Assembly: GCF_000027125.1 (NCBI RefSeq)
Contig: NC_017626.1
Direction: 5' to 3' (one strand)
Source of the DNA: Escherichia coli 042
GTDB taxonomy: Bacteria; Pseudomonadota; Gammaproteobacteria; Enterobacterales; Enterobacteriaceae
DNA length: 64,000 nucleotides
Shown here: piece after piece, positions 5,648-49,541 of the stretch
Position numbering within the stretch: the stretch's first letter is position 1
Layout of the letters: each line of letters starts with the position of its first letter
Notes under the pieces: generated by a model
Told to the model about the DNA's origin: nothing
The model's database searches: none
What the model saw: the letters and a program-made list of their open reading frames with translations, nothing else
Program-made: the position numbers and the translations under genes

Positions 5648-6223
5648 CTACGGCAGTGCTGGCCATTCAATATCCTGTGCAGTTGACGTATCAACACGGT
5701 TCAGCAATACCCGATACTTTTTCCATGCTTCCAGCAACGAGATTTCTTCCTCCGTTGCAATTTCCAGATCTGCAGCATCCTGAAGCGGCGCAATATGCTC
5801 ACTGGCTACCTGCATCAGGTTGTTTTTTGTTTCTTCCGCCTCCCGGATCCGGAACAGTTTTTCTGCTTCCGTATCCTTCACCCAGGCTGTGCCGTTCCAC
5901 TTCTGAAACTCCCCTTCCGGCGATAACCAGGTAACATTTTCCGGTAACGGACCGAGTTCAGAAATAAATAACGCGTCGCCGGAAGCCACGTCATAGACGG
6001 TTTTTCCCCGATGATCTTCAACGAGATGCCACGATGCCTCATCACTGTTGAAAACAGCCACGAAGCCTGCCGGAATATCTGGCGGTGCAATATCGGTACT
6101 GTTTGCTGGCAGACCTGTATGAGGCGGAATATATGCGTCACCTTCACCAATAAATTCATTAGTTCCGGCCAGCAGATTATAAATTTTTATGGTCTGTGGT
6201 TGTTCACTCATTCTGAATGCCAT
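5648..6223 (-). CDS. tfaQ: tail fibre assembly protein (Tfa)
   Basis: 191-aa ORF immediately downstream of and overlapping stf; Tfa-like sequence. Confidence 0.85.
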
Positions 6224-9192
6224 TATGCAAGCCTCACAATATAGTTAAATGCGATGTTTTTGACGGTGTTTTCCGCGTTACCAGCAGCGTTAACGGTGAT
6301 GGTGTGTCCATGTGAACCAATCGCAACGGAGTGCGTATGAGCACCAATACCGACAGTATGTGCATGTGCGCCTGCGCTTGCAGCAGTGCCGGACAGCGAG
6401 TGGGTATGAGCACCATCTGATGATGTCTTCCCTGCATTACGAGTCTGGCCACTACCGCTTGTTGTGCTCATAATCCCCGCGCTTAGATTTGAAATCGCGG
6501 TATAACCATTAGGGAAAATGCTCGTGTTCGTGCCACCAAATGCACCGGAACTCTTGTGTTGGTGCGCACCGGCACTATTTGCAGTCCCGCTAATACTATG
6601 GGTATGCGCCCCGGTGTTATTCGTGGATTTGGTTCCGTAATCAAACGACGATGTGTTTTTCGTCCCCAAATCCGTACTGGATGCGCTGGCGCTGTGGGTG
6701 TGCGATTTAATGCCGTCCTGTTCCTGAGACAATACGGCACGACCACTGGCGGGTTTGCCCTTAATCGTCCAGCCACGCATATCAGGGATCACGCCTGACG
6801 GATAAGCGGCTGCAAGTTTCGGGTATGCAGATTTGTCAAAAGTCTGCCCCTGCATCAGGGCATAGCCAGACGGAACGGTATCTGATGGCCACGGGATTGG
6901 TGCGCCAGGCGGATAAAACTGCTCTGATGGCGTATAGAGTGAATAAACTGTACCGTCCGTTAACCCTTCCGGCTTATTAGCAGAATATGCTGGTGACGTA
7001 TGAATCGTCACGCTGGCATTACTGGTATAATCCCATTGAATATTTACACCAGTCGCATAATTTCCGATTGCAACGTAAATATCGTAAGTATCACCAGATG
7101 TATTGACCCAGGCAAAATTTGTAAACCCTGTCGATGTGCGCTGCCATAAAGCACCAGTAATCCCCTTCGGATTACCATTACCTGCACGCAAAACAAGTTC
7201 AGATATACCTGCCTGTTGAGGTGACCCCACGTTAAATCCCGCGCCACCAATCAACGTAATTGAAACAACAGAACTCGCCTGTGGCATGGTTACCGTTGCT
7301 AATTTGAACCAACCAGCACCACCGCTGAATGACATTGTTGTTGAGTTAAGCGTACCAATATCTTTCGGCGTCAGTGTTATATCCGCTGAAAGCGCCTTAC
7401 CATTCACCTTACGGGCAGAAGGTACCCGACCATTCGCATTATCATTAGCTGCTTTCACTGCTTTCGGTGTCGCGGCAAGCGTTTCAGATGCGCTGTTGGT
7501 TGCACTACTGAGCTGGACAATTCCTTTTTGTGCTGTCGTAGCGTTCTGAGCAGTATATTTCCCGTTAGCAAGGTCATAGGCTGCCTTTACCGACTTTGGC
7601 GTTGCCGCCAGCATTTCAGATGTGCTGTTGGTCGCGTTGCTAAGCTGAACTATCCCTTTCTGTGCTGTCGTTGCATCCTGTGCGGTGTATTTCCCGTTAG
7701 CCAGCTCATACGCGGCCTTAACGGCTTTTGGTGTTGCCGCCAGTGACTCGGAAGTGCTGTTAGTCGCACTGCTGAGCTGTACTATCCCCTTTTTCGTCGT
7801 GCTCGCATCCTCAAGCGCGACGGCGGATGCAATATCCTCTGCCCGTTTTGCCGCTGTCTCGGCGCGCGTTGCCGCGGATTCCGCCGTACTTTTGCTCTGA
7901 GCTGCCGCCGTCGCACTGCCAGCTGCCTCTGTCGCCTTCGTGGATGCCGTCGTGGCGCTGCCCTTTGCTGCTGACGCCTGTCTGGTCGCCTCATCTTTTG
8001 AAGCAGACGCAGATAATGCCGATGACGCCGCCGAACTGGCGGACGATGCGGCAGCCGTTTTTGAGGATTCTGCGCTGGTTTCCGACGCTTTCGCGTTCGT
8101 CTCGGATGTCTTCGCTGCGGAAGCAGACCTCGCTGCTGCGCTGGCCTGTACAGCGGCTTCGCCAGCCTTCGTTGTGGCTGTTGAAGCGGACGATGCAGCA
8201 CTTTCTGCCGATTTTCCGGCGGCGGTGGCACTGGCTGAGGCCTGCCCGGCATTTGTTGACGCGGCGCTGGCAGATGAGGCAGCCGCTGTTTTTGAGTCTG
8301 CTGCTGCGGAGGCACTCTGTGCTGCTGCCGTCTCAGAAGACTTAGCGTTCGTCTCGGACGTTTTTGCCGCCTTCGCGGAATTTCCTGCCGCTGTTGCCGA
8401 GGAGGCTGCACTACTGGCGCTCGAGGCTGCGCTCGTTTCTGATGATTTTGCCGCCTCTTTTGAGGCCGCCGCATCCCGGGCTGAGGTGGCAGCTTCTGAC
8501 GCCTTCGTGGTCGCGGCGGATGCAGAAGTGGCTGCTGATTGTTGTGACGCTGCCGCATTCGTTTCTGACGTTTTCGCGGCACTGGCACTGGTAGCTGCCG
8601 CGCTTTTTGAGGACTCTGCAGCGGCAGCACTTTTTGATGCTTCAGTAGCCTTTGTTGATGCCGTTCCTGCGCTGGAAGACGCTGACTGAGCCGACGTCGC
8701 GGCCTGCCCGGCTGATGTGCTGGCTGCACGTGCTGAGCCTGCAGCATCAGTCGCATGGGTTGCCGCCTCACGGGCTGATGTGCTGGCATCGCTGGCTGAC
8801 TTCTTCGCGGCTGCTGTGTTCTGCGCCACTGCGGACGCGTTACGCGCCACCTCTTCCACCATCAGTTCAAAACGGCGCAGTGCCTCAGGACGGGCATCAT
8901 CCTCCGTCATGGCACCGAGAAAATCATTCAGCGTACCGGGTCGGGAATCTTCATACACGGTGATGGTCCCGGCATGTGACGGCGGGAATCCTTCCACCAA
9001 CAGAATAACGCTGTACTGACCGTACTCAACGTCCATGCTGTAACGCCCGGCCTCATCCGGATTTTCTGAGGCCAGCGTGTTCACCACCACCGTGGTGCTG
9101 TTACGTTTTGCTTTCAGCTGGATTGTGCAGTTCTGTACCGGTTTTCCTGTGCCGTCTTTCAGTACACCTGAAATCTTTACTGCCATATTCAC
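6223..9192 (-). CDS. stfQ: side tail fibre protein (Stf), 989 aa, with expanded Ala/Ser/Thr-rich repeat region
   Basis: N-terminus [26 protein letters not shown]... like lambda Stf; low-complexity A/S/T-rich stretch; three ~43-aa tandem repeats; His-rich HxH motifs near the C-terminus. Confidence 0.85.
7455..7830. repeat. three tandem ~129-bp repeats inside stf
   Basis: Repeated protein unit TAQ(D/N)[12 protein letters not shown](N/S)ATNS(T/A)SE(M/T)LAATPK(A/S)VKAA seen three times, with matching near-identical DNA blocks. Confidence 0.7.
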
Positions 9193-26223: not shown

Positions 26224-28145
26224 TCATCCTCTCCGGATAAGGCACGGGCGTAATCTGCCAGTGTTTTCTTGTTGGTTGCTGCACCATCCTCTTCCTGCAG
26301 GCTCGCCAGCAGTGCACTGAGATCCAGCTGCCAGCGGGAAATACTGATGCGCAGCGCCGCCAGCGCATAAACGAAGCAGTCGAGCGCCTCATTGCGTCGC
26401 TTTTTGCTGTCCCACAGTATTTTTTTCCTGCCATCCACCCATTTTTCGACCTGCTCTTCAGCAGTCAGCTGCTGCGCTTCGGTCAGATCAAAAATATCCG
26501 GGTTATTCGGGAAGTGAACGGCACCGGGAAGCGGTTCATCCCCTTCCGGCGTCAGTGTGAAGCGGTTATAAATCTGCTCTTTCGCGGTATCCGTACCGAT
26601 TTCGGTAAGGTAAACCCCGTTTTTGTTTCGCTTACGAGGCATGCTGGCCACCGGCTTACCGTAGACGGATGCCCCTTTAATGGGGATCACCCGGAACAGC
26701 CCATGCTTTTTCGAGCGTTCATACACAATGGTCGGGTCAATCCCGCCAATATCCCAGCAGATACGGGATATCGACATTTCTGCACCATTCCGGCGGGTAT
26801 AGGTTTTATTGATGGCCTCATCCACACGCAGCAGCGTCTGTTCATCGTCGTGGCGGCCCATAATAATCTGCCGATCAATCAGCCAGCTTTCCTCACCCGG
26901 CCCCCATCCCCATACGCGCATTTCGTAGCGATCCAGCTGGGAGTCGATACCGGCGGTCAGGTAAGCCACACGGTCAGGAACGGGCGCTGAATAATGCTCT
27001 TTCCGCTCTGCCATCACTTCAGCATCCGGACGTTCGCCAATTTTCGCCTCCCACGTCTCACCGAGCGTGGTGTTTACGAAGGTTTTACGTTTTCCCGTAT
27101 CCCCTTTCGTTTTCATCCAGTCTTTGACAATCTGCACCCAGGTGGTGAACGGGCTGTACGCTGTCCAGATGTGAAAGGTCACACTGTCAGGTGGCTCAAT
27201 CTCTTCACCGGATGACGAAAACCAGAGAATGCCATCACGGGTCCAGATCCCGGTCTTTTCGCAGATATAACGGGCATCAGTAAAGTCCAGCTCCTGCTGG
27301 CGGATGACGCAGGCATTATGCTCGCAGAGATAAAACACGCTGGAGGGGTCATCCGGCGTCCATTTGAGGCCAAACGGCGTCTCTTTGTCGCCAAATTTAA
27401 GATACTGCTCCTCCCCGCAGTGCGGGCAGACAACATGAAAACGCATAAAATGCGGGGATTCACTGGCTGCACGCTCAATCTGGCAGGTGCCTCTCACTTT
27501 GGGCGTGGAGCCACGGATGGACTTTGGCCAGACCGAGCCTTCAATACGTTTGTCGCCAAGGAACGTCGGAGAGCCTTCCTGTTCAATATCCTCATCAAAG
27601 GCAGCAAGTTCATCATAACCCGCCACATCCACCGACTTTTCACGGTAGTTTTTTGCCGCTTTACCGCCCAGGCACCAGAAGCCACGACCATTGGTAAAAC
27701 GCTTCATGGTGAGCGTGTTATCCCGGTGCTTTTTGCCATACCACGGTGCCAGCGCCAGCAGCGACGGAATATCACGGATAGTCGGCTCAACGTGGGTTTT
27801 CATAAAGTTCTCGGCATCACCATCCGTCGGCAACCAGATAAGGGTGTTGCGCTGCTTATGCTCTATGAAGTAGGCATAAACACCCAACAGCATTTTGGAA
27901 TAACCGACACGGGCAGACTTCACCACATTCACCTCACGGATGTAGTCGCTGCCCATCGCATTCATGATGGCCCGCTGAAAGGGCAGTGTTTCCCAGCGCC
28001 CTTCCTGGTATGCGGATTCTTTCGGGAGATAGTAATTGGCATCCGCCCATTCAACGGCGGTCTGTGGCTCCGGCCTGAACAGTGAGCGAAGCCCGGCGCG
28101 GACAAAATGCCGCAGCCTGTTAACCTGACTGTTCGATATATTCAC
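26220..28145 (-). CDS. A: terminase large subunit A
   Basis: 641 aa, same length as lambda gpA. Confidence 0.95.
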
Positions 28146-30482: not shown

Positions 30483-30753
30483 GATGTTACCGTAGTATGT
30501 GAGTATCCATCGAATAGACACCAAGCAAAAAAGCTCCCGAAGGAGCCTTCATTTTCACTTTTTTAAATCCAACGACAGACGGCTGGCATTTAAGTATTGT
30601 GAAATATTATCAAATGTAATCATCATTGATTTACAAAAGATACATTTTGCCCCGAAAGGATTCATGTCAGAAACATCAAAAGATGATGTTCTATACTGGG
30701 AACCATGACAACACGGGCATCTAAAGTGAATATGGTTTGTAATATTGTCTACC

Positions 30754-30966
30754 TCAAAGCGCCACTACATGAACAGCGGCAGGACCTTTAGGTCCGTTCT
30801 CAATACCAAATTCAACTTCCTGATTCTCAGTTAATGTTTTGAAATCGTTGCTCTGAATTGCTGAGAAATGGACAAACACATCTTTGCTGCCATCTTTCGG
30901 CGTGATGAAACCAAAACCTTTTTCAGGGTTAAACCATTTCACTAAACCAGTCATTGTGTTAGACAT
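30754..30966 (-). CDS. cspI: cold-shock protein CspI
   Basis: 70-aa CSD protein [38 protein letters not shown]... Confidence 0.9.
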
Positions 30967-31328
30967 AATTATTACCTTTTGAAGAAATTAGCCCTTGGGC
31001 AGAATGGTCCGAAAAAAAATATCAGAGAGAAAAACCAACAAGGAAATCTCAAGAGGTACAAATAATAAAATTATAACAATGACTGCTTCAGATAAATTTG
31101 TAACAAACCAGAACACCATTAACGCATGATTAACCACCCATAGCAAGGATTACTTTTGTAAAGAAAAACACAGCAATGAAAGAATAGCTTTATTTATTAA
31201 TAAAACGTGTCATTCTGATTAAGACCTTTTATCTTACCCTTAAGATTTCAGGAATTTTGGCTCATGGAAGAGTCCTTTTTATTTAAATTTTACATTCCGC
31301 GATGTAAATGTTCCGATTTAATATTACC

Positions 31329-33250: not shown

Positions 33251-33529
33251 GATTGTGGTGCTTTTTGTGGGAGTCATCCACTTACGCACTTTGTTTTGCC
33301 ATGCCAGCAGTTAGCTTCTGCTGTAAAACTATTCATGCAGCAAACCTGCACTTCACCACAATGGTTAGCATACTTTTCCTGATTAAGATTTTGCCAAATA
33401 TGCTAGCCATTGTTTCATGTATTGGACCTCCTTACTTTTTATTAAAGAGATCCAATATTCACTACTCTGTCCGTATCTCTACTCAGGCATCAGCCTTCTT
33501 CGTTATCGTATACAGACGAGCGATGAATT

Positions 33530-33745
33530 TTAATCAGTAATGATGACATTTGCTGCTGCAGGACCTTTAGCACCACTCTCTATAGAGAAGGTAACCTTTT
33601 GACCTTCAAATAAGGTTCGATAATTATCATTCTGAATCGCAGAAAAATGCACAAACACATCTTTACTACCATCAACAGGAGAAATAAAGCCGAAACCTTT
33701 ATCAGCGTTAAACCATTTTACTAAACCAGTCATTTTATTTGACAT
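33530..33745 (-). CDS. cspB: cold-shock protein CspB
   Basis: 71-aa CSD protein [34 protein letters not shown]... Confidence 0.9.
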
Positions 33746-34045
33746 TCTACATTCCTTAACTTGAGCCTTTCGGCATAAATGGTTTGCATAACAGAAACGA
33801 CTTCGTACTTAATTGGAGAGACTCAAAGAAGGAATAAGTGAATAACACCTGAAATGAGAACTGCTTTAGTAAACTACTTCGTATATCGTCTGTTCTTCAA
33901 ACCGACGCAATCATTAACGCATAGTTGAACATATGAAGCAATGTTTATTTTAGACATCCAGCCATCTTCAACCCCATCAAAAAACTATAGCTTTCTTCAG
34001 GAACGTGTGTATAGTGCGCCAAGTTATCAGTATTAAGGAATTTTT

Positions 34046-38968: not shown

Positions 38969-39299
38969 CATCAGCCTTTTCTTTAAAGACATATTATCTT
39001 TGTATCATTTCTGATAGTTAACATTACAAGATATAAGTAATGGACGCACTCCCAATTAGTCTATTTAAATCGCCACGAGTTTAACTGACAACCCATGATC
39101 AATTATGAATTGCAACTATTTCTGTAGTCACTTTTGTGGGGACAGTCCACAAAACTGCCAACTTCCGCTTCTTGCTCTTAGCGGACATTAGCATAGGCTA
39201 TTTACCATAACGCCTCATTACGCGCACCGCCCAGACTGACTCAGCGCGTTTCTGGCATATCCCCGGTAAAACAAGTAACAAACCACCCGAAAATGAACA

Positions 39300-40760
39300 C
39301 CAGAAACGCGACTTAAGAATCTACCCTATGAATGGATATGCACTCAACCGAATCGATCTTGGTTTCAATCTTTTTTATCGGGATCAGGCTTCTTTTTAGG
39401 TAACTTCGGGGGCTTAACTTGCTGATGACTTTGCGTTCGGCGCGTAAGCCAGGGATGGTCAGCTTTAGGTTTAACATAGTATTTTGAGCGTAAATCAATA
39501 CGGGCATTATCCACTCGTTCATGGACACTCTTTTCATCATCCAGTGGTATAGGCTCCGGGCCATCAACATACTTTTCCCAGCCCAGCGCTTTCCCGTCAT
39601 ACAGAACGTTAATTTCACCGTCAAAGTTCTCGCATACAGTAACAACCGAATGCCTAAGTCGATATCCCCGGCCCTCACTGCGTACCTGAAACGCACTGCT
39701 TTTGTACTGGAAAGTGAGATTTTTAGACAGAACGCGCTTCGCCTGTAGGCTGAAGATATAACCCAGTTCCTCTTCAGAATGGTGCACATCAAGATGAGCA
39801 TTATCAGTAGTACGAGGCGACGTAGCGAACCGGTTGTTATAGGCTTCAATAAAGGTCGGCAACCATGCATTTGCTGTTTCAATATCACTGATATTCTGAA
39901 GCCGCATTTCTTTGACCAGCCTGTCCTGTAGTGTCTGATTGGCGCGCTCTACCCGCCCTTTTGCCTGCGGGCTGTTGGCATGGATTGGCTCGATGCCCAG
40001 TGTCTTTATCGCACGAGTGAACTGGGTCAGCTCACCTTCCCGCTCTGGGTTATTTACCCTGAATATACTGTGTCTATCAGAGTAGAGAGCGAGCGGTACG
40101 CCATGATCATTAAGGTAACCCCGGAGGGTTTCCATGTAAGCCCGGGTTGTTTCAGCAGGCACAAAACGCAACGCCATCAACGCACTGGTGGCATCATCAA
40201 TGAAAACGATCAGTGTACATCTGGGGCCTCGATTTTCAAACCAGTCATGAGGTGAGCCATCAATCTGGATCAGTTCACCGTAAGATGGTCGTCGCATGCG
40301 GCGTTGATATATACGGGCAATTTTACGACGGCGTTCACGCCATAACCCCTCTTCTACCATCCACTTTCTGAGAGTTTCAACGGATAAAGATAAACCGTGT
40401 ATCTCGCGCAATTTTTCGCACGCAAACGTAGGTCCAAAATCAGCGTAACGGCCTTTGAGGAGTGAAATTACTGTTGCTCTGAATTCAGTAGAAAAGGAAT
40501 TATTAGGACGCTTTCCACGTCGGTGGGAAACCAGACCAGAAGGCCCTTCATTTCTATACCGTTGCACCAGACGTTTAACCTGCCGAATAGAAATGCCAAT
40601 GCGTGCCGCAGCTTGTTCCTGAATAATCTGAAGTCGGTGGAGTTCCTTATGACTCATCGTAACAGTCTCTTTGATCATGAAAAATCCCCCAGAGAATTGT
40701 CTGGGGACATTTTAGAATGGTTCAAAGGGGACATTACAGCTTGGTGTTAACAATAGCCTG
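39300..40760. mobile_element. insertion sequence (boundaries approximate) carrying a DDE transposase
   Basis: Single 437-aa transposase gene in a ~1.45 kb block that interrupts prophage gene order between flxA and the replication genes; terminal inverted repeats not resolved by eye. Confidence 0.5.
39365..40678 (-). CDS. DDE (rve-fold) transposase with N-terminal HTH, IS481/ISNCY-like
   Basis: 437-aa ORF MIKETVTMSHKELHRLQIIQEQAAARIGISIRQVKRLVQRYRNEG... with integrase-core-like region. Confidence 0.8.
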   Translation of the reverse strand: MIKETVTMSHKELHRLQIIQEQAAARIGISIRQVKRLVQRYRNEGPSGLVSHRRGKRPNNSFSTEFRATVISLLKGRYADFGPTFACEKLREIHGLSLSVETLRKWMVEEGLWRERRRKIARIYQRRMRRPSYGELIQIDGSPHDWFENRGPRCTLIVFIDDATSALMALRFVPAETTRAYMETLRGYLNDHGVPLALYSDRHSIFRVNNPEREGELTQFTRAIKTLGIEPIHANSPQAKGRVERANQTLQDRLVKEMRLQNISDIETANAWLPTFIEAYNNRFATSPRTTDNAHLDVHHSEEELGYIFSLQAKRVLSKNLTFQYKSSAFQVRSEGRGYRLRHSVVTVCENFDGEINVLYDGKALGWEKYVDGPEPIPLDDEKSVHERVDNARIDLRSKYYVKPKADHPWLTRRTQSHQQVKPPKLPKKKPDPDKKD

Positions 40761-41012
40761 CTTCTCCGTGCCTTTCGGCACGTAAGAGGCTAACCTACAT
40801 GTGTCTAGCATGAAATTGGCCTCAGATTAATGTTAAGCGTCTTGCAGGACGCGTAATGTTAACTGGGGCTTTTCTCTATCTGCCGTTGGTGTCCATGCCC
40901 GAGGCAGATAGCCTCAAGCACCCGCAGTCATTCTACTTAACTAAGATTTCCCCGCAAACCGTTTTTGTCCAGCACAGTAAATATCCAACTAAACCAATGG
41001 AGTTCGCTGTAT

Positions 41013-41231: not shown

Positions 41232-42344
41232 ACCTCAATTTGGCCGGACATATAAATATCTAAACCAGAAAAAATCACTTACATAGCGTTACAAACTCTT
41301 TAGTCTAAAGGTTCATCGTAAAACATTCCCCATACTTATCAGTCCGTTCCGCGCCAGGTAGCTCATTGCCTTATCTGGCAACCTGTAATCAGGTTTCCGC
41401 TTTTTCAGTTGGCTGGTCGTTTAACCGACATAGTTAATCCATTAATCTAGTTGCCGGATGTTGGTGGATTTTCGCGTTTTAGTTGTTCATAAAAGTGCAC
41501 AGCTTTAACCAGTTCTTCTGATGTAACTGGGACTGGTGAGGCAGTGAATAAGGCCTGAATTTGATAGTTCGGCCTGTCGTTACAATCCTCTTTTTTCGGT
41601 ACATATTTCCAGTCACCAGACCACTACTTCCCCTGAAAGTCCGTAACGCCTTTTTTCACGTAGCGATATCGCCATGCCACTGGTTTTGCTTGCCCCGCCG
41701 TTTCATGCCCTTCCTGATAATTAATCTCGCTCATTCATCGCCCCACTCATCACAATATGCTTCGACCGGAGTTTTTCCCGCTTCATAGTCATCACGCTAG
41801 GATTCGACATCAGCAGCACTTCCACCGCGTAACTCACCATAGTCCATTAATAGTTCATCCCGCTCTTCAAAACTGATGTTATATTTAGCTGAACAAAAAT
41901 CAGCCACTTTGTTCTTCCTCATCGTCTTTTATTTCGTGGTATGAGTAATTGCAGTAGTTAAAGAAAATTTCTTATGCTCCGTCATGAATTTCCTCAGGTG
42001 TTGCGTCATCGTCCACTTCGAATACATCCTCAAAATCTCCACCAGCTATTCCCGTTTCAATAATAATTTTGAACTTTCGCATTTCACTACCGCCCTTTCG
42101 GGCGGCCTCCTGATGTTCTGAGGGTGCAGAAATCCATCCGGTTAAGGATTAAATTTTATTTACAGAACTGAATTTAATTATTCAGATATACGTATCTGTA
42201 GCCTTACGAATCTACTCACTGGATGCCTCTTTCATAAAAATAATCCAGTGGGTTTTATCGTTTTTTCCCTGTTCGTTGACAGATAACAGGTTTTCTGTCT
42301 GTCAGTGCCAGAATCTGGCTTACCGGTATTTGCGTTTCATTCCA

Positions 42345-42701
42345 TTAAAAAATCAGAACGCCGTGCGGCCTCAACACCCGAAAGGCTTCTTTAAATCTCT
42401 GTCGCGAATCATCACGCCAGGCATCTTTATTCAGCCGTCCATATTTCTTTCCCATCCAGGCGTTATCACCAACACTCTCAAGATGCGGAGGGTCTAATAC
42501 AACCATCGAAAAAGATGCGTCTGCAAATGATAATGCACGAAAATCTGCGATAATGTCAGGGCTGATAATCAAGCGTCTCCCATTGCGTAATGTGTATCCT
42601 TCTTTTCTGATATCGCTGAATATCGCCCGTTCGTCAGACTTATCGAACCAGAACATGCGGCTGCCACAGCACATATCAAGAATGGTTGCCGGTGCACTCA
42701 C
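42345..42701 (-). pseudogene. SAM-dependent DNA methyltransferase-like ORF, apparently truncated (118 aa)
   Basis: Motif I-like DMCCGSRMFWFD and motif IV-like VVLDPPH; ends at TAA after ...HGVLIF, frame continues protein-like (WNETQIPVSQILALTDRKPVICQRTGKKR). Confidence 0.45.
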
Positions 42702-43120
42702 TGCGCCACGTCCTGAAAATTACCCTGATAGAAAGCCAGTATGCGCTGCATAACTTCGCTCTTCCGGCACTCGCGACAGATTATGTTTAGGCGACTGTCG
42801 TAGCGACGTATTTCTCCGTCAGGTGATGACCAGATAAGGTCCGGATCAACCACAGCAGGTTTCTTCACCTTTGCCCTCGAGAGTTTTTTGCGGGCGTTTT
42901 GCCAGTCCTTACGCGCCTGTTCAGAGGGGAATAACCCGTAGCCGGAGTTGTATACATCGCCACTGGCTACCAGCTCTCTGGCAAGAACGCTCATCAGATA
43001 TCTAGTCGCACCTGTTTTAGCTTCCAGTTGCCGTAACGTCTCACGGCCGCTCTGGCGCACGAGTTCCACCACCTGCCATTTAATTTTTTCCCGCTCTTCT
43101 TGTGTAAAAACTTTTGCCAC
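42698..43120 (-). CDS. hypothetical prophage early protein (140 aa)
   Basis: ORF in the replication module downstream of the initiator gene; start overlaps methyltransferase-like ORF. Confidence 0.5.
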   Translation of the reverse strand: MAKVFTQEEREKIKWQVVELVRQSGRETLRQLEAKTGATRYLMSVLARELVASGDVYNSGYGLFPSEQARKDWQNARKKLSRAKVKKPAVVDPDLIWSSPDGEIRRYDSRLNIICRECRKSEVMQRILAFYQGNFQDVAQ

Positions 43121-43160
43121 AAGTCCCCCTTAAAATTACCTCATGACCTGAAATCAACAC

Positions 43161-44180
43161 TTATCCTCTGAAACCAGGCGGAATTTCTGTATCCGGTTCA
43201 GAAATATGATTAACACAACGCTGTACAGGTGAACGTCCCAGGCGGATGACCAGTTCGTCCCATTTTTCGCGGAGCTTTGACGGGCTCATGATGTTTTTGA
43301 CCCAGAATGGATCTCGCTGAACCCGACCAAACATTTCGCAAATTTGTCTGTGGCTTCTGCCATCCAGCATCCGCATTGTGCGCACGTCATTGGCCCAGGC
43401 AGTCCAGTTAGGCTCTTTTGGTCGCATGATCTCGCCATCATCACTGGCTGCCTGTTCGTAGAGACCCACGATCCGCCCCCAGATCCACTGCGCACACGCC
43501 AAATCCTCCCTGCTACCCCACTGGCGTTTTTTCGCACTAAACACAACCGCGTCGGAGTTCCGGGTTAAAAAATCCTGTTCAGTCGTCTGCGGGTCCGGTT
43601 GCGAAGCTTCCGGACGAAAAGTGTTTTTATTCTCTGTAGTAGTCTCTGTTGTATTCTCTGTAAGATCATCAGGCCATTTTGACCCGATGACATTGGGTCG
43701 TTTTGAACCAATGGAGCGTTTCATTTTGACCTCTTCCATCGTGTCATTTTGACCTGATGGAGCGGCGCATTTTGAACCGATGGATTCGCTCAATTTGCCA
43801 CCATCTAAAAGCTCGCTCCCATAGTTGATCGTGTAGAAATTGGTCATATCGCGCTTTGATTTATTGAGCTTTTCACAACGCAAAAGCCCCAGCGTTTTCA
43901 GACTTGCAAACGCGCGCTTTAACGTTGACTCTGACCAGAATGGGAACTGTTCCAGCCATTGTTCCGTTGTGTTATAAATCCAGCGAACACCATCACATTC
44001 CATGCCGGAGTTGGTATCTCTCAACCAGTAGTGCAGTTGTTGCAAAACAATGGCTTCGTTTAAGCCAATTTTCATTGCCAGCTGCGTGTTTATAACCAGT
44101 GGGCGTTCAGCAAAAAGAAGGCTCATAATTCCATCCAGCTTTTTGTTGGTATTGCTGTCGATACGCAAGTTTGAAAGCAA
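43161..44180 (-). CDS. putative phage replication initiator (lambda O position) with internal iteron origin
   Basis: 339-aa ORF at the position of lambda O relative to the Cro-like gene; contains a block of direct repeats inside the coding sequence. Confidence 0.55.
   Translation of the reverse strand: MLSNLRIDSNTNKKLDGIMSLLFAERPLVINTQLAMKIGLNEAIVLQQLHYWLRDTNSGMECDGVRWIYNTTEQWLEQFPFWSESTLKRAFASLKTLGLLRCEKLNKSKRDMTNFYTINYGSELLDGGKLSESIGSKCAAPSGQNDTMEEVKMKRSIGSKRPNVIGSKWPDDLTENTTETTTENKNTFRPEASQPDPQTTEQDFLTRNSDAVVFSAKKRQWGSREDLACAQWIWGRIVGLYEQAASDDGEIMRPKEPNWTAWANDVRTMRMLDGRSHRQICEMFGRVQRDPFWVKNIMSPSKLREKWDELVIRLGRSPVQRCVNHISEPDTEIPPGFRG
43675..43790. repeat. putative replication origin: ~5 direct repeats (iterons) of cattttga(a/c)c...atgga, period ~23 bp
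   Basis: Repeats cattttgacccgatgacattgggtcg / ttttgaaccaatggagcg / cattttgacctcttccatcg / cattttgacctgatggagcgg / cattttgaaccgatggattcg inside the initiator gene. Confidence 0.5.
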
Positions 44181-44628
44181 TTGCTTTTTCTATAAGTTCG
44201 TCAGTTTCACGATCCACTACGGCAGGATCAGCAAAAAGCAGTCCGGACTCCACCACATCGCCATATTCTTTGTTTAACCCGGCGATCATGCACGTGATGC
44301 TTTTTCCGTCAGTAATTTCACGATACAACCTGAAATCATTAATCCGGATAGCCTCCATAATTGCAGGCACTAGCGCCGTGAACTTTTCACGCTTATCCCT
44401 GGTGTCGATAGCCTTCCAGCGTTCAAATATCTTCACTCGATTAACGCCAAGCGCTCGCTGATCAATCGCGCCACCTTCATATGTGACACGCTGAACATCG
44501 ATGTTCGGGCGCTCTTTCAAAGCCCAGAATGCTTCAGTGATTAATATCGTCGCCTGCTCCTGTGTCATTCCTGGTCGACATATCCAGGCATCCAGAGCCT
44601 CACGAGCCTGTTCAGGAGTGATTTTCAT
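44107..44628 (-). CDS. YdaT-like prophage regulatory protein (cII position)
   Basis: 173-aa ORF directly downstream of the Cro-like dicC; pattern ...IFERWKAIDTRDKREKFTALVPAIMEAI... resembles YdaT-family proteins. Confidence 0.45.
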   Translation of the reverse strand: MKITPEQAREALDAWICRPGMTQEQATILITEAFWALKERPNIDVQRVTYEGGAIDQRALGVNRVKIFERWKAIDTRDKREKFTALVPAIMEAIRINDFRLYREITDGKSITCMIAGLNKEYGDVVESGLLFADPAVVDRETDELIEKAIAFKLAYRQQYQQKAGWNYEPSFC

Positions 44629-44842
44629 TGTTCAACCGCCCCGCCCGCTTCGTCTTACGATATTCATCATAAACTTTGGGATCATACTGAAGCTCCCCGC
44701 CAGATGCCTCCTGTAGACGCATCGCGCGACCTTCGGGAACTAAATCCCCTTTCCAGCTATAAAGCGAAGCCAAACGAATACCTGCTGCTTGTGCAAGTTT
44801 TGTTTTTGAACCGAAATACAAAAGAGCGTCAGTTTTAAGCAT
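44612..44842 (-). CDS. dicC: Cro-like regulator DicC
   Basis: 76-aa ORF MLKTDALLYFGSKTKLAQAAGIRLASLYSWKGD... divergent from dicA. Confidence 0.85.
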   Translation of the reverse strand: MLKTDALLYFGSKTKLAQAAGIRLASLYSWKGDLVPEGRAMRLQEASGGELQYDPKVYDEYRKTKRAGRLNNENHS

Positions 44843-44925
44843 TTAAAACACCTTTATTGTTAGCCATAACTAACAAGATAGATGTTAACAAAAACATAGT
44901 CAATACGATTTAGCATTAGCTAACT
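44843..44925. promoter_or_regulatory. dicA-dicC divergent promoter/operator region
   Basis: Intergenic region with palindromic operator-like elements (tgttagccataactaaca; ttagcattagctaa). Confidence 0.55.
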
Positions 44926-45333
44926 ATGGAAACAAAAAATTTAACTATCGGCGAACGCATCAGGTATCGTCGGAAAAACCTCAAACACACCCAAAGGTCT
45001 CTTGCTAAAGCCCTGAAAATCTCCCATGTGTCTGTATCACAATGGGAACGGGGTGATAGTGAACCTACAGGGAAGAACCTTTTTGCCCTCAGCAAAGTAT
45101 TGCAATGCTCACCAACATGGATTCTATTTGGCGATGAAGACAAGCAACCAACACCACCTGTTGAGAAGCCAGTTGCCTTATCCCCCAAAGAACTAGAGCT
45201 CCTTGAGCTGTTTAATGCACTGCCAGAATCAGAACAGGATACCCAGCTCGCCGAAATGCGAGCTCGAGTAAAAAACTTCAATAAACTCTTTGAAGAATTA
45301 CTAAAAGCCCGTCAGCGGACAAATAAAAGATAA
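44926..45333 (+). CDS. dicA: XRE-family repressor DicA
   Basis: 135-aa ORF METKNLTIGERIRYRRKNLKHTQRSLAKALKISHVSVSQWERG... (HTH). Confidence 0.9.
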   Translation: METKNLTIGERIRYRRKNLKHTQRSLAKALKISHVSVSQWERGDSEPTGKNLFALSKVLQCSPTWILFGDEDKQPTPPVEKPVALSPKELELLELFNALPESEQDTQLAEMRARVKNFNKLFEELLKARQRTNKR

Positions 45334-45499
45334 CATCATCAATGAGTTATCTTTTACCACATCAATTATGTTAGCTATAGCATACAAAATCACTTGACCG
45401 ATATGTTAGTCATGGCTAATCTTGTTTGCATCAACACACCGCACGGTGTTCTCAGCAAACAGTTCCGCTACCCCAGCGTTAAGGGGAAATGAGGTCAGC

Positions 45500-45655
45500 A
45501 TGGATACTATCGATCTTGGCAACAACGAATCTCTGGTGTACGGCGTGTTTCCAAACCAGGACGGCACGTTCACCGCAATGACGTATACCAAAAGCAAAAC
45601 GTTTAAAACCGAAAATGGTGCCCGTCGCTGGCTGGAAAGAAACTCAGGTGAGTGA
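45500..45655 (+). CDS. ydfA: small protein YdfA (51 aa)
   Basis: Internal start MDTIDLGNNESLVYGVFPNQDG... within ORF 45422..45655. Confidence 0.8.
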   Translation: MDTIDLGNNESLVYGVFPNQDGTFTAMTYTKSKTFKTENGARRWLERNSGE

Positions 45656-45656
45656 T

Positions 45657-45785
45657 ATGGATTTCGACACAATCATGGAAAAGGCTTACGAAGAATACTT
45701 CGAAGGCCTTGCCGAAGGCGAAGAAGCTCTCAGCTTCAGTGAGTTTAAACAGGCGCTTTCCAGTTCGGCAAAATCTAACGGCTGA
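45657..45785 (+). CDS. ydfB: small protein YdfB (42 aa)
   Basis: Manual translation MDFDTIMEKAYEEYFEGLAEGEEALSFSEFKQALSSSAKSNG; below ORF-track cutoff. Confidence 0.75.
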   Translation: MDFDTIMEKAYEEYFEGLAEGEEALSFSEFKQALSSSAKSNG

Positions 45786-45814
45786 TAAGCGAAACAGCAC
45801 CGCGAGGAATCAGT

Positions 45815-46033
45815 ATGCAGAAACGAGAACCCGTCATCATCGCGCCAGACTATACCGATGATGAACTTTATGAGTGGATGCGCCAGAAAATTAATGCAGC
45901 GCAGGATCTGAAATGGGCTAATGAAGCCAGGGCTAAGCAGGCTGAAAATCTGTCCGCTCTGGAGCAGGATATCACCAATCTGGAAAAAGCAGCGGCATTA
46001 AGCATTGCCAGAATGATTACATACCCGCGTTAG
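45815..46033 (+). CDS. ydfC: small protein YdfC (72 aa)
   Basis: ORF MQKREPVIIAPDYTDDELYEWMRQKINAAQDLKW... Confidence 0.8.
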   Translation: MQKREPVIIAPDYTDDELYEWMRQKINAAQDLKWANEARAKQAENLSALEQDITNLEKAAALSIARMITYPR

Positions 46034-46373: not shown

Positions 46374-46432
46374 TTTCTGGTGACGTTTGGCGGTATCAGT
46401 TTTACTCCGTGACTGCTCTGCCGCCCTTTTTA
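46374..46432 (+). ncRNA. dicF: DicF small regulatory RNA (cell-division inhibitor, ftsZ antisense)
   Basis: tttctggtgacgtttggcggtatcagttttactccgtgactgctctgccgccc followed by TTTTT; matches DicF as I remember it; lies between ydfC and dicB. Confidence 0.8.
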
Positions 46433-47069: not shown

Positions 47070-49541
47070 ATGAGTAAAGTCTTTATTTGCGCCGCTATTC
47101 CTGACGAACTGGCAACAAGGGAAGAAGGCGCTGTGGCTGTAGCCACAGCCATTGAAGCTGGCGACGAACGCCGTGCTCGAGCAAAATTTCACTGGCAATT
47201 CCTGGAACATTATCCGGCTGCTCAGGACTGCGCTTATAAATTTATTGTCTGCGAGGATAAACCTGGCATACCCCGCCCTGCCCTCGATTCATGGGATGCT
47301 GAATATATGCAGGAAAACCGCTGGGATGAGGAGTCTGCTTCTTTTGTCCCGGTTGAGACTGAATCCGATCCGATGAACGTCACTTTTGACAAGCTGGCCC
47401 CTGAAGTACAGAACGCTGTCATGGTTAAGTTCGACACATGTGAAAACATCACCGTTGATATGGTTATTAGCGCACAGGAATTGTTGCAGGAAGACATGGC
47501 AACATTCGACGGACATATCGTTGAAGCGTTGATGAAAATGCCAGAAGTTAACGCCATGTATCCGGAGCTTAAGTTGCACGCCATTGGGTGGGTTAAGCAT
47601 AAATGTATTCCTGGTGCTAAATGGCCCGAAATTCAGGCAGAGATGCGCATCTGGAAAAAACGTCGCGAAGGTGAACGCAAGGAAACCGGAAAATACACGT
47701 CTGTTGTTGATCTCGCCCGCGCCAGAGCCAATCAACAGTACACTGAAAATTCAACAGGAAAAATCAGCCCGGTCATTGCTGCCATTCATCGCGAATACAA
47801 GCAGACATGGAAAACACTGGATGACGAACTGGCCTACGCTCTCTGGCCTAGTGATGTGGATGCCGGAAACATTGACGGCAGCATCCATCGCTGGGCAAAA
47901 AAAGAAGTTATCGACAACGACCGCGAAGACTGGAAGCGTATCTCGGCATCAATGCGCAAACAGCCTGATGCCCTTCGCTACGACCGCCAAACTATTTTTG
48001 GCCTTGTCCGTGAGCGTCCGATCGACATTCACAAAGATCCCGTAGCACTGAACAAATATATCTGCGAATACCTGACGACAAAGGGCGTGTTTGAGAATGA
48101 AGAAACAGACCTGGGCACTGTTGATGTTCTCCAGTCATCAGAAACACAAACTGATGCAGTGGAAACTGAGGTATCTGATATCCCAAAAAATGAAACCGCG
48201 CCGGAAGCTGAACCATCTGTAGAGCGTGAGGGGCCGTTCTATTTCCTCTTCGCAGATAAGGACGGAGAAAAATACGGTCGCGCAAACAAACTCTCTGGTC
48301 TGGATAAGGCACTGGCTGCTGGCGCCACTGAAATCACAAAAGAAGAATATTTTGCCCGAAAAAATGGCACATACACGGGCTTACCGCAAAATGTAGATAC
48401 CGCTGAAGATTCAGAACAACCAGAGCCGATAAAAGTTACCGCTGACGAAGTAAACAAAATTATGCAGGCAGCCAATATCAGCCAGCCTGACGCCGATAAG
48501 TTGCTTGCTGCATCACGTGGTGAATTTGTTGAAGGGATTAGTGACCCGAATGATCCGAAATGGGTTAAGGGGCTCCAGACCCGCGATTCTGTGAACCAGA
48601 ACCAGCATGAATCGGAACGGAACTACCAAAAAGCGGAACAAAACAGTCCAAATGCGTTACAAAACGAGCCAGAAACGAAACAGCCTGAACCAGTAGCGCA
48701 ACAGGAAGTGGAAAAAGTCTGCACCGCCTGCGGTCAGACCGGCGGCGGCAACTGCCCTGATTGTGGCGCGGTGATGGGCGACGCAACATACCAAGAAACA
48801 TTCGATGAAGAGTATCAGGTTGAAGTTCAGGAAGATGATCCGGAGGAAATGGAAGGCGCTGAACATCCACACAAGGAGAACACTGGCGGCAATCAGCATC
48901 ACAATAGCGATAATGAAACTGGCGAGACGGCAGATCACCCAATTAAGGTGAACGGTCATCACGAAATCACATCCACCAGCAGGACGTGTGACCATCTAAT
49001 GATCGACCTTGAAACCATGGGAAAAAATCCTGATGCCCCGATCATCTCAATAGGTGCAATATTTTTCGATCCGCAAACCGGAGATATGGGACCGGAATTT
49101 AGTAAGACTATCGATCTGGAAACTGCTGGCGGAGTCATTGATCGGGACACCATTAAATGGTGGCTTAAGCAATTACGCGAAGCGCAATCTGCCATTATGA
49201 CCGATGAAATCCCGTTAGATGATGCACTGTTACAATTGCGAGAATTTATCGACGAAAACTCCGGTGAATTTTTTGTTCAGGTTTGGGGAAATGGAGCCAA
49301 CTTCGACAACACGATTTTGCGCCGTTCATACGAACGGCAGGGGATCCCCTGCCCGTGGCGTTACTACAACGATCGCGATGTACGCACAATCGTTGAGCTG
49401 GGGAAAGCCATAGACTTCGATGCCAGAACGGCTATTCCATTCGAAGGTGAGCGCCATAATGCACTTGATGACGCCCGTTACCAGGCAAAATACGTTTCAG
49501 TTATCTGGCAAAAACTGATCCCGAGTCAGGCTGATTCTTAA
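47070..49541 (+). CDS. ydfE: YdfE-family prophage protein, full length, with central zinc ribbon and C-terminal DEDDh (DnaQ-like) 3'-5' exonuclease domain
   Basis: ORF 47034..49541; start chosen at MSKVFICAAIPDELATRE...; CxxC...CxxC (CTACGQTGGGNCPDCG); exonuclease motifs DLETMG, GANFDNTIL, HNALDDARYQA. Confidence 0.8.
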   Translation: MSKVFICAAIPDELATREEGAVAVATAIEAGDERRARAKFHWQFLEHYPAAQDCAYKFIVCEDKPGIPRPALDSWDAEYMQENRWDEESASFVPVETESDPMNVTFDKLAPEVQNAVMVKFDTCENITVDMVISAQELLQEDMATFDGHIVEALMKMPEVNAMYPELKLHAIGWVKHKCIPGAKWPEIQAEMRIWKKRREGERKETGKYTSVVDLARARANQQYTENSTGKISPVIAAIHREYKQTWKTLDDELAYALWPSDVDAGNIDGSIHRWAKKEVIDNDREDWKRISASMRKQPDALRYDRQTIFGLVRERPIDIHKDPVALNKYICEYLTTKGVFENEETDLGTVDVLQSSETQTDAVETEVSDIPKNETAPEAEPSVEREGPFYFLFADKDGEKYGRANKLSGLDKALAAGATEITKEEYFARKNGTYTGLPQNVDTAEDSEQPEPIKVTADEVNKIMQAANISQPDADKLLAASRGEFVEGISDPNDPKWVKGLQTRDSVNQNQHESERNYQKAEQNSPNALQNEPETKQPEPVAQQEVEKVCTACGQTGGGNCPDCGAVMGDATYQETFDEEYQVEVQEDDPEEMEGAEHPHKENTGGNQHHNSDNETGETADHPIKVNGHHEITSTSRTCDHLMIDLETMGKNPDAPIISIGAIFFDPQTGDMGPEFSKTIDLETAGGVIDRDTIKWWLKQLREAQSAIMTDEIPLDDALLQLREFIDENSGEFFVQVWGNGANFDNTILRRSYERQGIPCPWRYYNDRDVRTIVELGKAIDFDARTAIPFEGERHNALDDARYQAKYVSVIWQKLIPSQADS

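Follow-up and report, generated by a model that had tools for sequence, protein, structure and literature searches.

A repeat array within an O-like initiator gene

The DNA analysed here is a stretch of 64,000 nucleotides (nt) from Escherichia coli 042 (RefSeq contig NC_017626.1), referred to below as the window. At 43161..44126, on the minus strand, it carries a gene of 321 codons plus stop whose product is a 'hypothetical protein' in RefSeq (WP_000054512.1). The coding sequence contains an array of 23-bp repeats (iterons) and, adjoining it, a block of 12-bp repeats. We argue that this segment is very probably a prophage replication origin built like that of phage lambda (ori-lambda) and embedded in its own initiator gene. 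A lambda-like arrangement, with the origin inside a gene in the position of lambda O, had been suggested in an initial annotation of the sequence. It is borne out by the iterons with their dyad symmetry, the adjoining least stable duplex of the gene downstream of them, the location of both in the coding sequence for a disordered linker, the match of the protein to the O family and the position of the gene; selection at the DNA level is a further ground for assigning origin function.

Read mechanically, the open reading frame (ORF) starts with TTG at 44180 and encodes the 339 amino acids (aa) given in the initial annotation. RefSeq and three phage records place the start at ATG 44126, which gives a product of 321 aa. 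The phage records name the protein 'DNA replication protein O', 'replication initiation O-like' or 'Primosomal protein I', and nearly all of its 4762 homologs at E ≤ 1e-5 are unnamed. Residues 17-321 matched positions 11-298 of the 298-position PHROGs profile phrog_391 'replication initiation O-like' with E = 6e-92, the family name being an annotation label and not a functional assay. BLASTP against lambda O (J02459) aligned aa 147-294 with lambda O 135-270 at 33% identity over 148 aa (E = 8e-26) and left the N-terminal domains unaligned. Both matches place the protein in a replication family. The earlier impression that the initiator is not recognisably lambda O holds for its N-terminal domain, but not for its C-terminal domain.

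The iterons and the 12-bp repeats

The repeat core GKTCAAAAYG occurs five times on the minus strand, at 43675, 43699, 43722, 43745 and 43768, with spacings of 24, 23, 23 and 23 bp. Only two further occurrences were found elsewhere in the 64 kb; the chance expectation is 0.97 per window, and none of 100 shuffles reached seven. About five direct repeats at a spacing of about 23 bp had been noticed by eye, and five copies are indeed present at 43667-43782. Their period was recovered both by Tandem Repeats Finder (TRF; period 23, 3.7 copies, 43701-43784) and by an independent repeat search, which returned 23-nt copies at 43667-43689, 43691-43713, 43737-43759 and 43760-43782. The lag autocorrelation of 43667-43798 is 0.57 at lag 23, 0.56 at lag 46 and 0.51 at lag 69. 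The lag-23 value was not equalled at any lag from 8 to 39 in any of 5000 shuffles, and no other stretch of the 64 kb is as periodic. With a TRF score of at least 50, only four tandem arrays were detected in the 64 kb, two of which are the iterons and the 12-bp repeats.

The iteron consensus, CATCGGGTC-AAAAT-GACCCGATG, is a perfect 9+5+9 palindrome. All copies lie on the minus strand, and in the direction of transcription the array begins with a degenerate copy, iteron 0 (GATGGTGGCAAATTGAGCGAATC, 43783..43805), which is in the 23-bp phase and identical to the consensus at 14 of 23 positions. It is followed by iteron 1 (CATCGGTTCAAAATGCGCCGCTC, 43760..43782; dyad matches at 5 of 9 positions), iteron 2 (CATCAGGTCAAAATGACACGATG, 43737..43759; 7 of 9), iteron 3 (GAAGAGGTCAAAATGAAACGCTC, 43714..43736; 4 of 9), in which the core is kept and the arms are degenerate, iteron 4 (CATTGGTTCAAAACGACCCAATG, 43691..43713; 8 of 9) and iteron 5 (CATCGGGTCAAAATGGCCTGATG, 43667..43689; 7 of 9). 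A dyad score of at least 7 is reached by only 6 of the 943 23-mers of the initiator gene.

Directly downstream of the iterons in the direction of transcription we found a second block, overlooked in the initial annotation. It consists of three 12-bp repeats, TACAGAGAATAC, AACAGAGACTAC and TACAGAGAATAA, of the form (T)ACAGAGAnTAC (43627..43663, minus strand), and was detected by TRF and by the second repeat search. The coding strand of the block is purine-rich, and its GC content is 0.325. The gene has its least stable 40-bp window at 43624-43663, where the nearest-neighbour free energy is -45.1 kcal/mol against a mean of -55.2 and a standard deviation of 3.5, that is, about 2.9 standard deviations above the gene mean. 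The 12-mer block is therefore a candidate DNA-unwinding element. Iteron 5, which adjoins the 12-mers, is nearly invariant among 53 variants of the gene. Qin-type genes more than 95% identical (L065, L083, L085) have between 2 and 5 of the 12-bp units, giving gene lengths of 317, 321, 325 and 329 aa. Literature searches for the peptide encoded by the block and for its DNA sequence matched only unrelated primers and eukaryotic proteins and gave no description of it, and those for an origin of the Qin prophage found nothing specific, the classic phage-origin literature lying mostly outside the reach of either search.

One GATC (43664-43667) sits where iteron 5 gives way to the 12-mer block. The enterobacterial relatives (mEp460_4F5, Kp4882 and ZX1) share it at this position, and those of Erwinia and Pseudomonas lack it; either a Dam/SeqA site or chance could account for it.

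The repeats are conserved as DNA

Since the period of 23 is not a multiple of 3, copies of the iteron core fall into all three frames and encode SIGSK, PSGQND and EEVKMK. To examine selection we used two sets of sequences. A search with the N-domain alignment retrieved almost only close relatives (95-100% identity), which served for the polymorphism analysis as 53 distinct 966-nt gene variants from viral contigs and phages. Diverse homologs were obtained by tblastn on phage records and by a DNA-pattern scan.

Among the 53 variants, the numbers of variable sites at first, second and third codon positions are 11, 9 and 61 in the N-domain (112 sites per position) and 19, 15 and 59 in the C-domain (100 sites per position). 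The corresponding numbers are 11, 13 and 11 in the iteron segment (about 41 sites per position) and 3, 4 and 1 in the 12-mer block (15 sites per position). Both domains are thus under normal protein-level purifying selection, and the origin segment lacks that signature: 12 of its 56 third positions are variable versus 120 of 212 in the domains (p = 2e-6).

Codon choice within the 12-mer block was compared among 11 homologs that had been collected by protein similarity only; they come from phages of E. coli, Klebsiella, Erwinia, Hafnia, Pseudomonas, Staphylococcus and Bacillus. The codons of the block are fixed, even in the Pseudomonas phage with 60% GC, while the flanking N-domains have diverged to 46-75% aa identity. 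The GAG:GAA ratio for glutamate is 28:2 within the block versus 102:114 in the remainder of these genes (p = 7e-7), and ACA+ACT:ACC+ACG for threonine is 56:2 versus 81:105 (p = 1e-14), the compared sequences being phylogenetically related, so that these p-values overstate their independence. In the Bacillus phages the DNA motif is kept in another frame, CAG AGA ATA CCA GAG ACT, and encodes QRIPET (QRIPETT).

A repetitive, low-complexity peptide linker, shaped by protein-level selection or slippage only, would give the DNA no role of its own. The segment does encode a disordered linker, and the shifts between 2 and 5 of the 12-bp units among close relatives resemble slippage. Such an explanation is hardly credible, however, as it would have to accommodate a 23-bp period that yields unrelated peptides in three frames, a segment without the excess of third-position changes seen in the flanking domains, 12-mer codons that stay fixed at 60% GC, and Bacillus phages in which the motif is translated in another frame. 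Based on the three-frame reading, the lack of codon-position bias and the fixed 12-mer codons, we interpret the repeats as a DNA element, with selection on the DNA rather than on the peptide.

Two other kinds of element were ruled out. Rfam gave no match within the initiator gene, which excludes an RNA element, and a scan of the gene for an internal promoter or terminator found generic stem-loops only and no promoter-like site.

Domain architecture of the initiator

The architecture of the protein was derived from an AlphaFold2 model with an input alignment of 44 sequences. The predicted N-terminal winged-helix domain (aa 1-110; 43797..44126, minus strand, as for all parts of the gene) is modelled over residues 6-110 with predicted local distance difference test (pLDDT) values of 75-91 and the topology H-H-E-E-H-H-E-E. 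It is followed by a disordered inter-domain linker (aa 111-177; 43596..43796; pLDDT 29-46) and by a folded, helical C-terminal domain homologous to the C-domain of lambda O (aa 178-298; 43233..43595; pLDDT 77-95). The protein ends in a disordered tail that aligns with DnaT (aa 302-321, QRCVNHISEPDTEIPPGFRG; 43164..43223). The linker-coding segment 43596-43796 holds iterons 1-5 and the 12-bp repeats whole, and iteron 0 in part, which reaches 9 bp into the N-domain coding sequence.

The best Foldseek matches of the N-domain in the PDB are all winged helix-turn-helix folds, although weak ones (E = 0.03-0.4), and include the N-domains of the RepA_N proteins 4pql, 4pt7 and 5kbj. The winged helix-turn-helix families of Pfam matched the N-domain below threshold only. 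A Pfam and NCBIfam scan of the initiator returned no family apart from the 20-residue DnaT tail, and PDB sequence searches with the initiator protein and with an N-domain profile yielded nothing usable.

A wider family of putative iteron and 12-mer origins

A scan of viral contigs with ACAGAGAYTACNACAGAGAYTAC gave more than 120 exact hits; the pattern version leaves out the Qin-type genes. In the 80 listed loci the motif is nearly always in frame as TE(I/T)TTE(I/T)T, at residues ~130-250 of an ORF of 250-430 aa. For the 73 distinct loci analysed further, the presence and the frame of the 12-mer are forced, as the set was retrieved by the 12-mer pattern itself. In the 200 nt upstream of the 12-mer, the best autocorrelation period is 23 bp in 51 of the 73 loci and 22-24 bp in 58. 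Of 75 ORFs compared by their N-terminal parts, 72 fall into one BLAST-connected superfamily.

The iterons differ wholly between N-domain subfamilies (ACAATGGA, GATGGCGGAAAACGCCAT, CCCCTGACATTTCCCGTCATA, AAAGCCCA and others), and the 12-mer is constant. ACAGAGAnTAC is conserved as DNA beside unrelated iterons in phages of Proteobacteria and Firmicutes (L008-L015, L096-L175). The C-domains of the superfamily are of lambda-O-like, Phg_2220_C, DnaB_2 and other types. Variable iterons, a constant 12-mer and variable C-domains together point to a modular unit, in which an N-domain with its own iterons would confer specificity next to an opening block that stays constant and a C-terminal module that can be exchanged.

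The same modularity raises the question whether the ACAGAGAnTAC block is a recombination linker for module shuffling and not an unwinding element. The block marks the exact point at which one and the same kind of N-domain and iterons passes into different C-domains: the Qin-type gene and that of Klebsiella phage Kp4882 are ~73% identical up to TENTTE and unrelated beyond it, and the three named C-domain types occur within one superfamily. We consider a pure linker role improbable. It leaves unexplained the purifying selection at every synonymous site of the block while N-domains have diverged to 46%, and the block is in addition the thermodynamic minimum of the gene and matches the AT-rich unwinding region of lambda in position and partly in sequence. 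Moreover, linker and opening roles can coexist.

Likewise, the iterons could serve mainly for control, by autoregulation, handcuffing or the exclusion of related phages, with the true origin elsewhere in the phage. Plasmid iterons serve initiation and control alike, fragments of lambda with ori and O are reported to inhibit homologous phages when cloned (PMC3349717), and the present computations do not locate the start of DNA synthesis. This explanation nevertheless appears very unlikely, since the array is directly followed by the gene's least stable duplex, as in lambda, since the design of iterons followed by 12-mers recurs in most of the 73 loci, and since no other array with a TRF score of at least 50 lies in the prophage early region of the window.

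Prophage setting and neighbouring genes

The region 42000-46000 of the window is 100% identical to several complete E. coli genomes, in which the annotation reads dicA, dicC, 'toxin YdaT family', 'hypothetical protein', DUF977 and methyltransferase, as in the early region of Qin-type prophages. The element that hosts the putative origin is thus a Qin-type lambdoid prophage with dicA/dicC immunity. About 330 of 5426 complete E. coli genomes contain the region nearly intact. The initiator gene follows the cro-like dicC and a cII-like gene of the ydaT family, which is the position of O in lambda.

The gene in the cII position (44107..44628, minus strand) overlaps the start of the initiator gene. 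The NCBI Prokaryotic Genome Annotation Pipeline (PGAP) names it 'toxin YdaT family protein' and PHROGs 'CII-like transcriptional activator'. Some database entries (P0001, P0002, P0004) present fusions of 448 aa of this gene and the initiator, which are probably mis-annotations of a start site or a frameshift. A pR-like promoter was located between dicA and dicC (44875..44903, minus strand) by consensus scan only, with 9 of 12 matches. As in lambda, it would carry transcription of dicC, the ydaT-family gene and the initiator gene through the origin. On the other side of the initiator, the position of lambda P is occupied by a 140-aa DUF977 gene (42698..43120, minus strand), which PHROGs assigns to the 'Ren-like' exclusion genes.

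Isolated phages carry the same gene, with nucleotide identities of 98.1% in HannyBb, 96.7% in mEp460_ev081 and 99.8% in PhiR42_1. The module is therefore in use in HannyBb and mEp460_ev081. As to E. coli 042 itself, the origin and its initiator could be an inert relic in the chromosome that no longer functions. Downstream of the replication module, RefSeq annotates a truncated ISNCY transposase as well as pseudogenes with frameshifts or internal stops, and K-12-type Qin prophages are cryptic. However, the initiator ORF is intact and only 3 residues away from that of HannyBb, the repressor, cro-like and cII-like genes are intact too, and the 53 variants of the initiator gene show purifying selection on its domains. 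Complete loss of function is, on balance, rather unlikely.

A number of other elements were recorded elsewhere in the window. An ORF with helix-turn-helix and rve_3 domains at 39365-40678 (minus strand; also L001 3636-6083) is a transposase by domain match. Rfam matches at gathering level are the DicF small RNA (46375-46426, plus strand), the sok antitoxin RNA beside hokD (40752-40923, minus strand), two cspA-type thermoregulator leaders (30727-31112 and 33514-33906, both minus strand) and IS009 (5682-5880, minus strand). TRF also found a 132-bp repeat with 2.4 copies (7478-7788) and a 21-bp repeat with 2 copies (27354-27395). The lag-21 autocorrelation reaches 0.53-0.57 at ~8300-8450 and at ~48560-48730, the latter within an 835-aa exonuclease ORF.

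A DnaT-like tail and its possible role in helicase recruitment

None of the tests made identifies the DUF977/Ren-like gene that follows the initiator as a helicase loader. Neither P nor DnaC nor DnaB is annotated in the replication regions of the viable phages HannyBb, mEp460_ev081 and PhiR42_1. In a BLAST search with lambda P and a Walker-A scan of related loci, which included HannyBb and excluded the window, HannyBb gave no match, and a lambda-P-like ORF was found in L169 only. As the module has no P, DnaC or helicase gene of its own, recruitment of the helicase probably falls to the C-terminal part of the initiator.

The last 20 residues of this part, QRCVNHISEPDTEIPPGFRG, are identical to the last 20 residues of E. 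coli DnaT at 14 positions, with E ~1e-3 against all PDB sequences. Both proteins end exactly at ...IPPGFRG-COOH. This short match is probably the source of the label 'Primosomal protein I' in some phage records. As a name for the initiator it is a misnomer: the DnaT equivalog NF002770 of NCBIfam scores 16.2 bits against a cut-off of 201, only residues 302-321 align, and the initiator lacks the N-domain, the acidic linker and the three-helix domain of DnaT that binds single-stranded DNA (ssDNA).

The ending P-x-G-F-R-G is also found on initiators with other N-domains and other C-domains. A P-loop ORF lies just downstream of 2 of 11 tail-bearing initiators (both DnaC-like) versus 23 of 35 tail-less ones (p = 0.013), by a heuristic count with a Walker-A regular expression that is not a family assignment. 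In two IMG/VR loci, L107 and L142, the tail-bearing initiator is followed by a DnaC/IstB-like ATPase of 246 aa with a GKN variant of Walker A, which hints that the tail may work together with a DnaC-type loader. After several other tail-bearing initiators (L104, L112) we observed ORFs of 150-164 aa that look like winged-helix proteins.

The available passages of a 2025 paper describe phage LLS and 34 of 314 lambdoid phages that have an O gene only and no helicase or loader; they call O-only replication 'not yet understood' and do not mention a DnaT-like tail (Genome Res, PMC12315714). In O-only phages such as LLS, as in the Qin-type, a single O-family gene is the whole replication module. LLS is related to mEp460_4F5, whose initiator has a Qin-type N-domain at 75% identity. 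The O protein of LLS also ends in ...KIPEGFRG, and its gene (L216 8500-8620, PQ299149, gene 44) contains repeats with a TCAAAA core, GA(Y)GC(N)TCAAAA(W)C at a period of 18 bp, which encode DASKSDASKTDASKSEASK (DASKSDASKT...) and are probably embedded iterons of its own. LLS differs from the Qin-type in its N-domain and retains only a degenerate trace of the 12-mer block. Its C-domain resembles, by eye against Kp4882, those that match Pfam Phg_2220_C in relatives.

Truncation of DnaT residues 154-179 lowers the cooperativity of ssDNA binding ~2-fold (PMC4132743), and how DnaT recruits DnaB/DnaC 'remains unknown' (PMC13377028); neither paper defines a partner of this DnaT segment. We tentatively propose that the DnaT-like tail is a helicase-recruitment device, a lead rather than a mechanism, to which we give somewhat less than an even chance; the tail could dock on PriA, DnaC or DnaB. 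More speculative is a joint reading, in which the tails of O-only phages would mimic the DnaT C-terminus to tap the PriA/PriB/DnaT-DnaC loading of the host, and ACAGAGAnTAC would be a shared, sequence-specific site of opening and helicase entry. The latter part would extend to a very large superfamily in Proteobacteria and Firmicutes, whatever the specificity of the iterons. If the mimicry is true, the tail would mark a functional contact of the C-terminal segment of DnaT.

Proposed mechanism and its weighing

From the sequence we infer that the N-domain would bind the iterons, that the duplex would unwind at the 12-mers and that the segment would have autonomous origin activity. Initiation could then proceed as follows. 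Transcription from the pR-like promoter would lead to the 321-aa initiator, dimers of whose winged-helix N-domain would bind the five to six contiguous 23-bp iterons. With each iteron an inverted repeat around an A-tract, the bound array would form a nucleoprotein complex similar to the O-some. Stress from this complex would open the three adjoining ACAGAGAnTAC repeats, and the DnaB helicase of the host would be loaded at the opened 12-mers, probably recruited by the lambda-O-like C-domain together with the DnaT-like 20-residue tail.

Several observations weigh against this interpretation, in addition to the relatedness of the sequences in the codon test and the pattern-based retrieval of the 73 loci described above. 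The initiator has no match to PF04492 (Phage_rep_O) at E ≤ 0.01, whereas lambda O itself matches with 5.7e-36. An hhalign comparison of the N-domain profile with the lambda O N-terminus gave a probability of 0.09, although with so shallow a profile (Neff, the effective number of sequences, 2.3) distant homology is possible. The N-domain is presumed to be the iteron-binding domain by analogy and from a weak fold match. No P, DnaC or helicase gene follows the initiator in the window, where the next gene is the DUF977/Ren-like one. Helicase recruitment is the weakest link in the scheme. Finally, the truncated ISNCY transposase and the pseudogenes downstream mean that this copy of the prophage is defective, and its origin may never fire in E. 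coli 042.

Through the analysis, a gene with 4762 homologs whose product is a 'hypothetical protein' in RefSeq gains a function and a putative origin. With the DnaT-like peptide as a handle, helicase loading by O-only lambdoid phages becomes testable, also in the tractable phage LLS. The invariant ACAGAGAnTAC beside variable iterons offers a defined target for studies of origin opening, and the block is a simple signature of such origins in metagenomic phage contigs.

Comparison with RepA_N plasmids and phage lambda

In RepA_N plasmids an iteron origin lies in the centre of the rep gene, where it encodes the linker between the DNA-binding N-domain and a host-specific C-domain. The RepA_N initiators of Firmicutes plasmids (RepA of pSK41 and pTZ2162; 4pql, 4pt7, 5kbj) have a winged-helix N-domain that is among the best fold matches of the Qin-type N-domain. 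The fold match is weak (E = 0.05-0.26), however, sequence similarity is absent, the iterons differ, and RepA_N replicons are plasmids and not phages. We know of no ACAGAGA block in RepA_N origins.

The lambda origin contains four dyad-symmetric 18-mers (ATCCCTCAAAACGAGGGA and variants) that start at 39034, 39054, 39078 and 39101, with spacings of 20, 24 and 23 bp. They occupy codons 117-144 of O and are followed by an AT-rich stretch. The Qin-type differs in that its N-domain has no detectable similarity to that of lambda O, its iterons have different arms and are contiguous 23-mers, and its unwinding region is made of three exact 12-bp ACAGAGAnTAC repeats in place of a general AT-rich stretch. 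The C-domain of lambda O binds P; in the Qin-type no P gene follows the initiator and a DnaT-like C-terminal tail is added. On the other hand, the iterons of the Qin-type lie at codons ~108-153, nearly the same place as in lambda. Both origins have 4-6 iterons with a period of ~20-24 bp, each with a CAAAA(C/T)G A-tract at the centre of an inverted repeat, both have an AT-rich, strand-asymmetric region immediately downstream in the direction of transcription, and in both the origin segment encodes the linker between the N-terminal DNA-binding domain and the C-terminal domain. Even the AT-rich part of lambda, ATTACAAAAGAAAA, resembles the 12-mer junction of the Qin-type, ATTACAACAGAGA, by eye and without statistics. 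Without a PF04492 N-domain and a P partner the Qin-type initiator stands outside the full lambda O-P family, and the system fits best as a new member in the known lambda-type class, in which the origin lies within the initiator gene.

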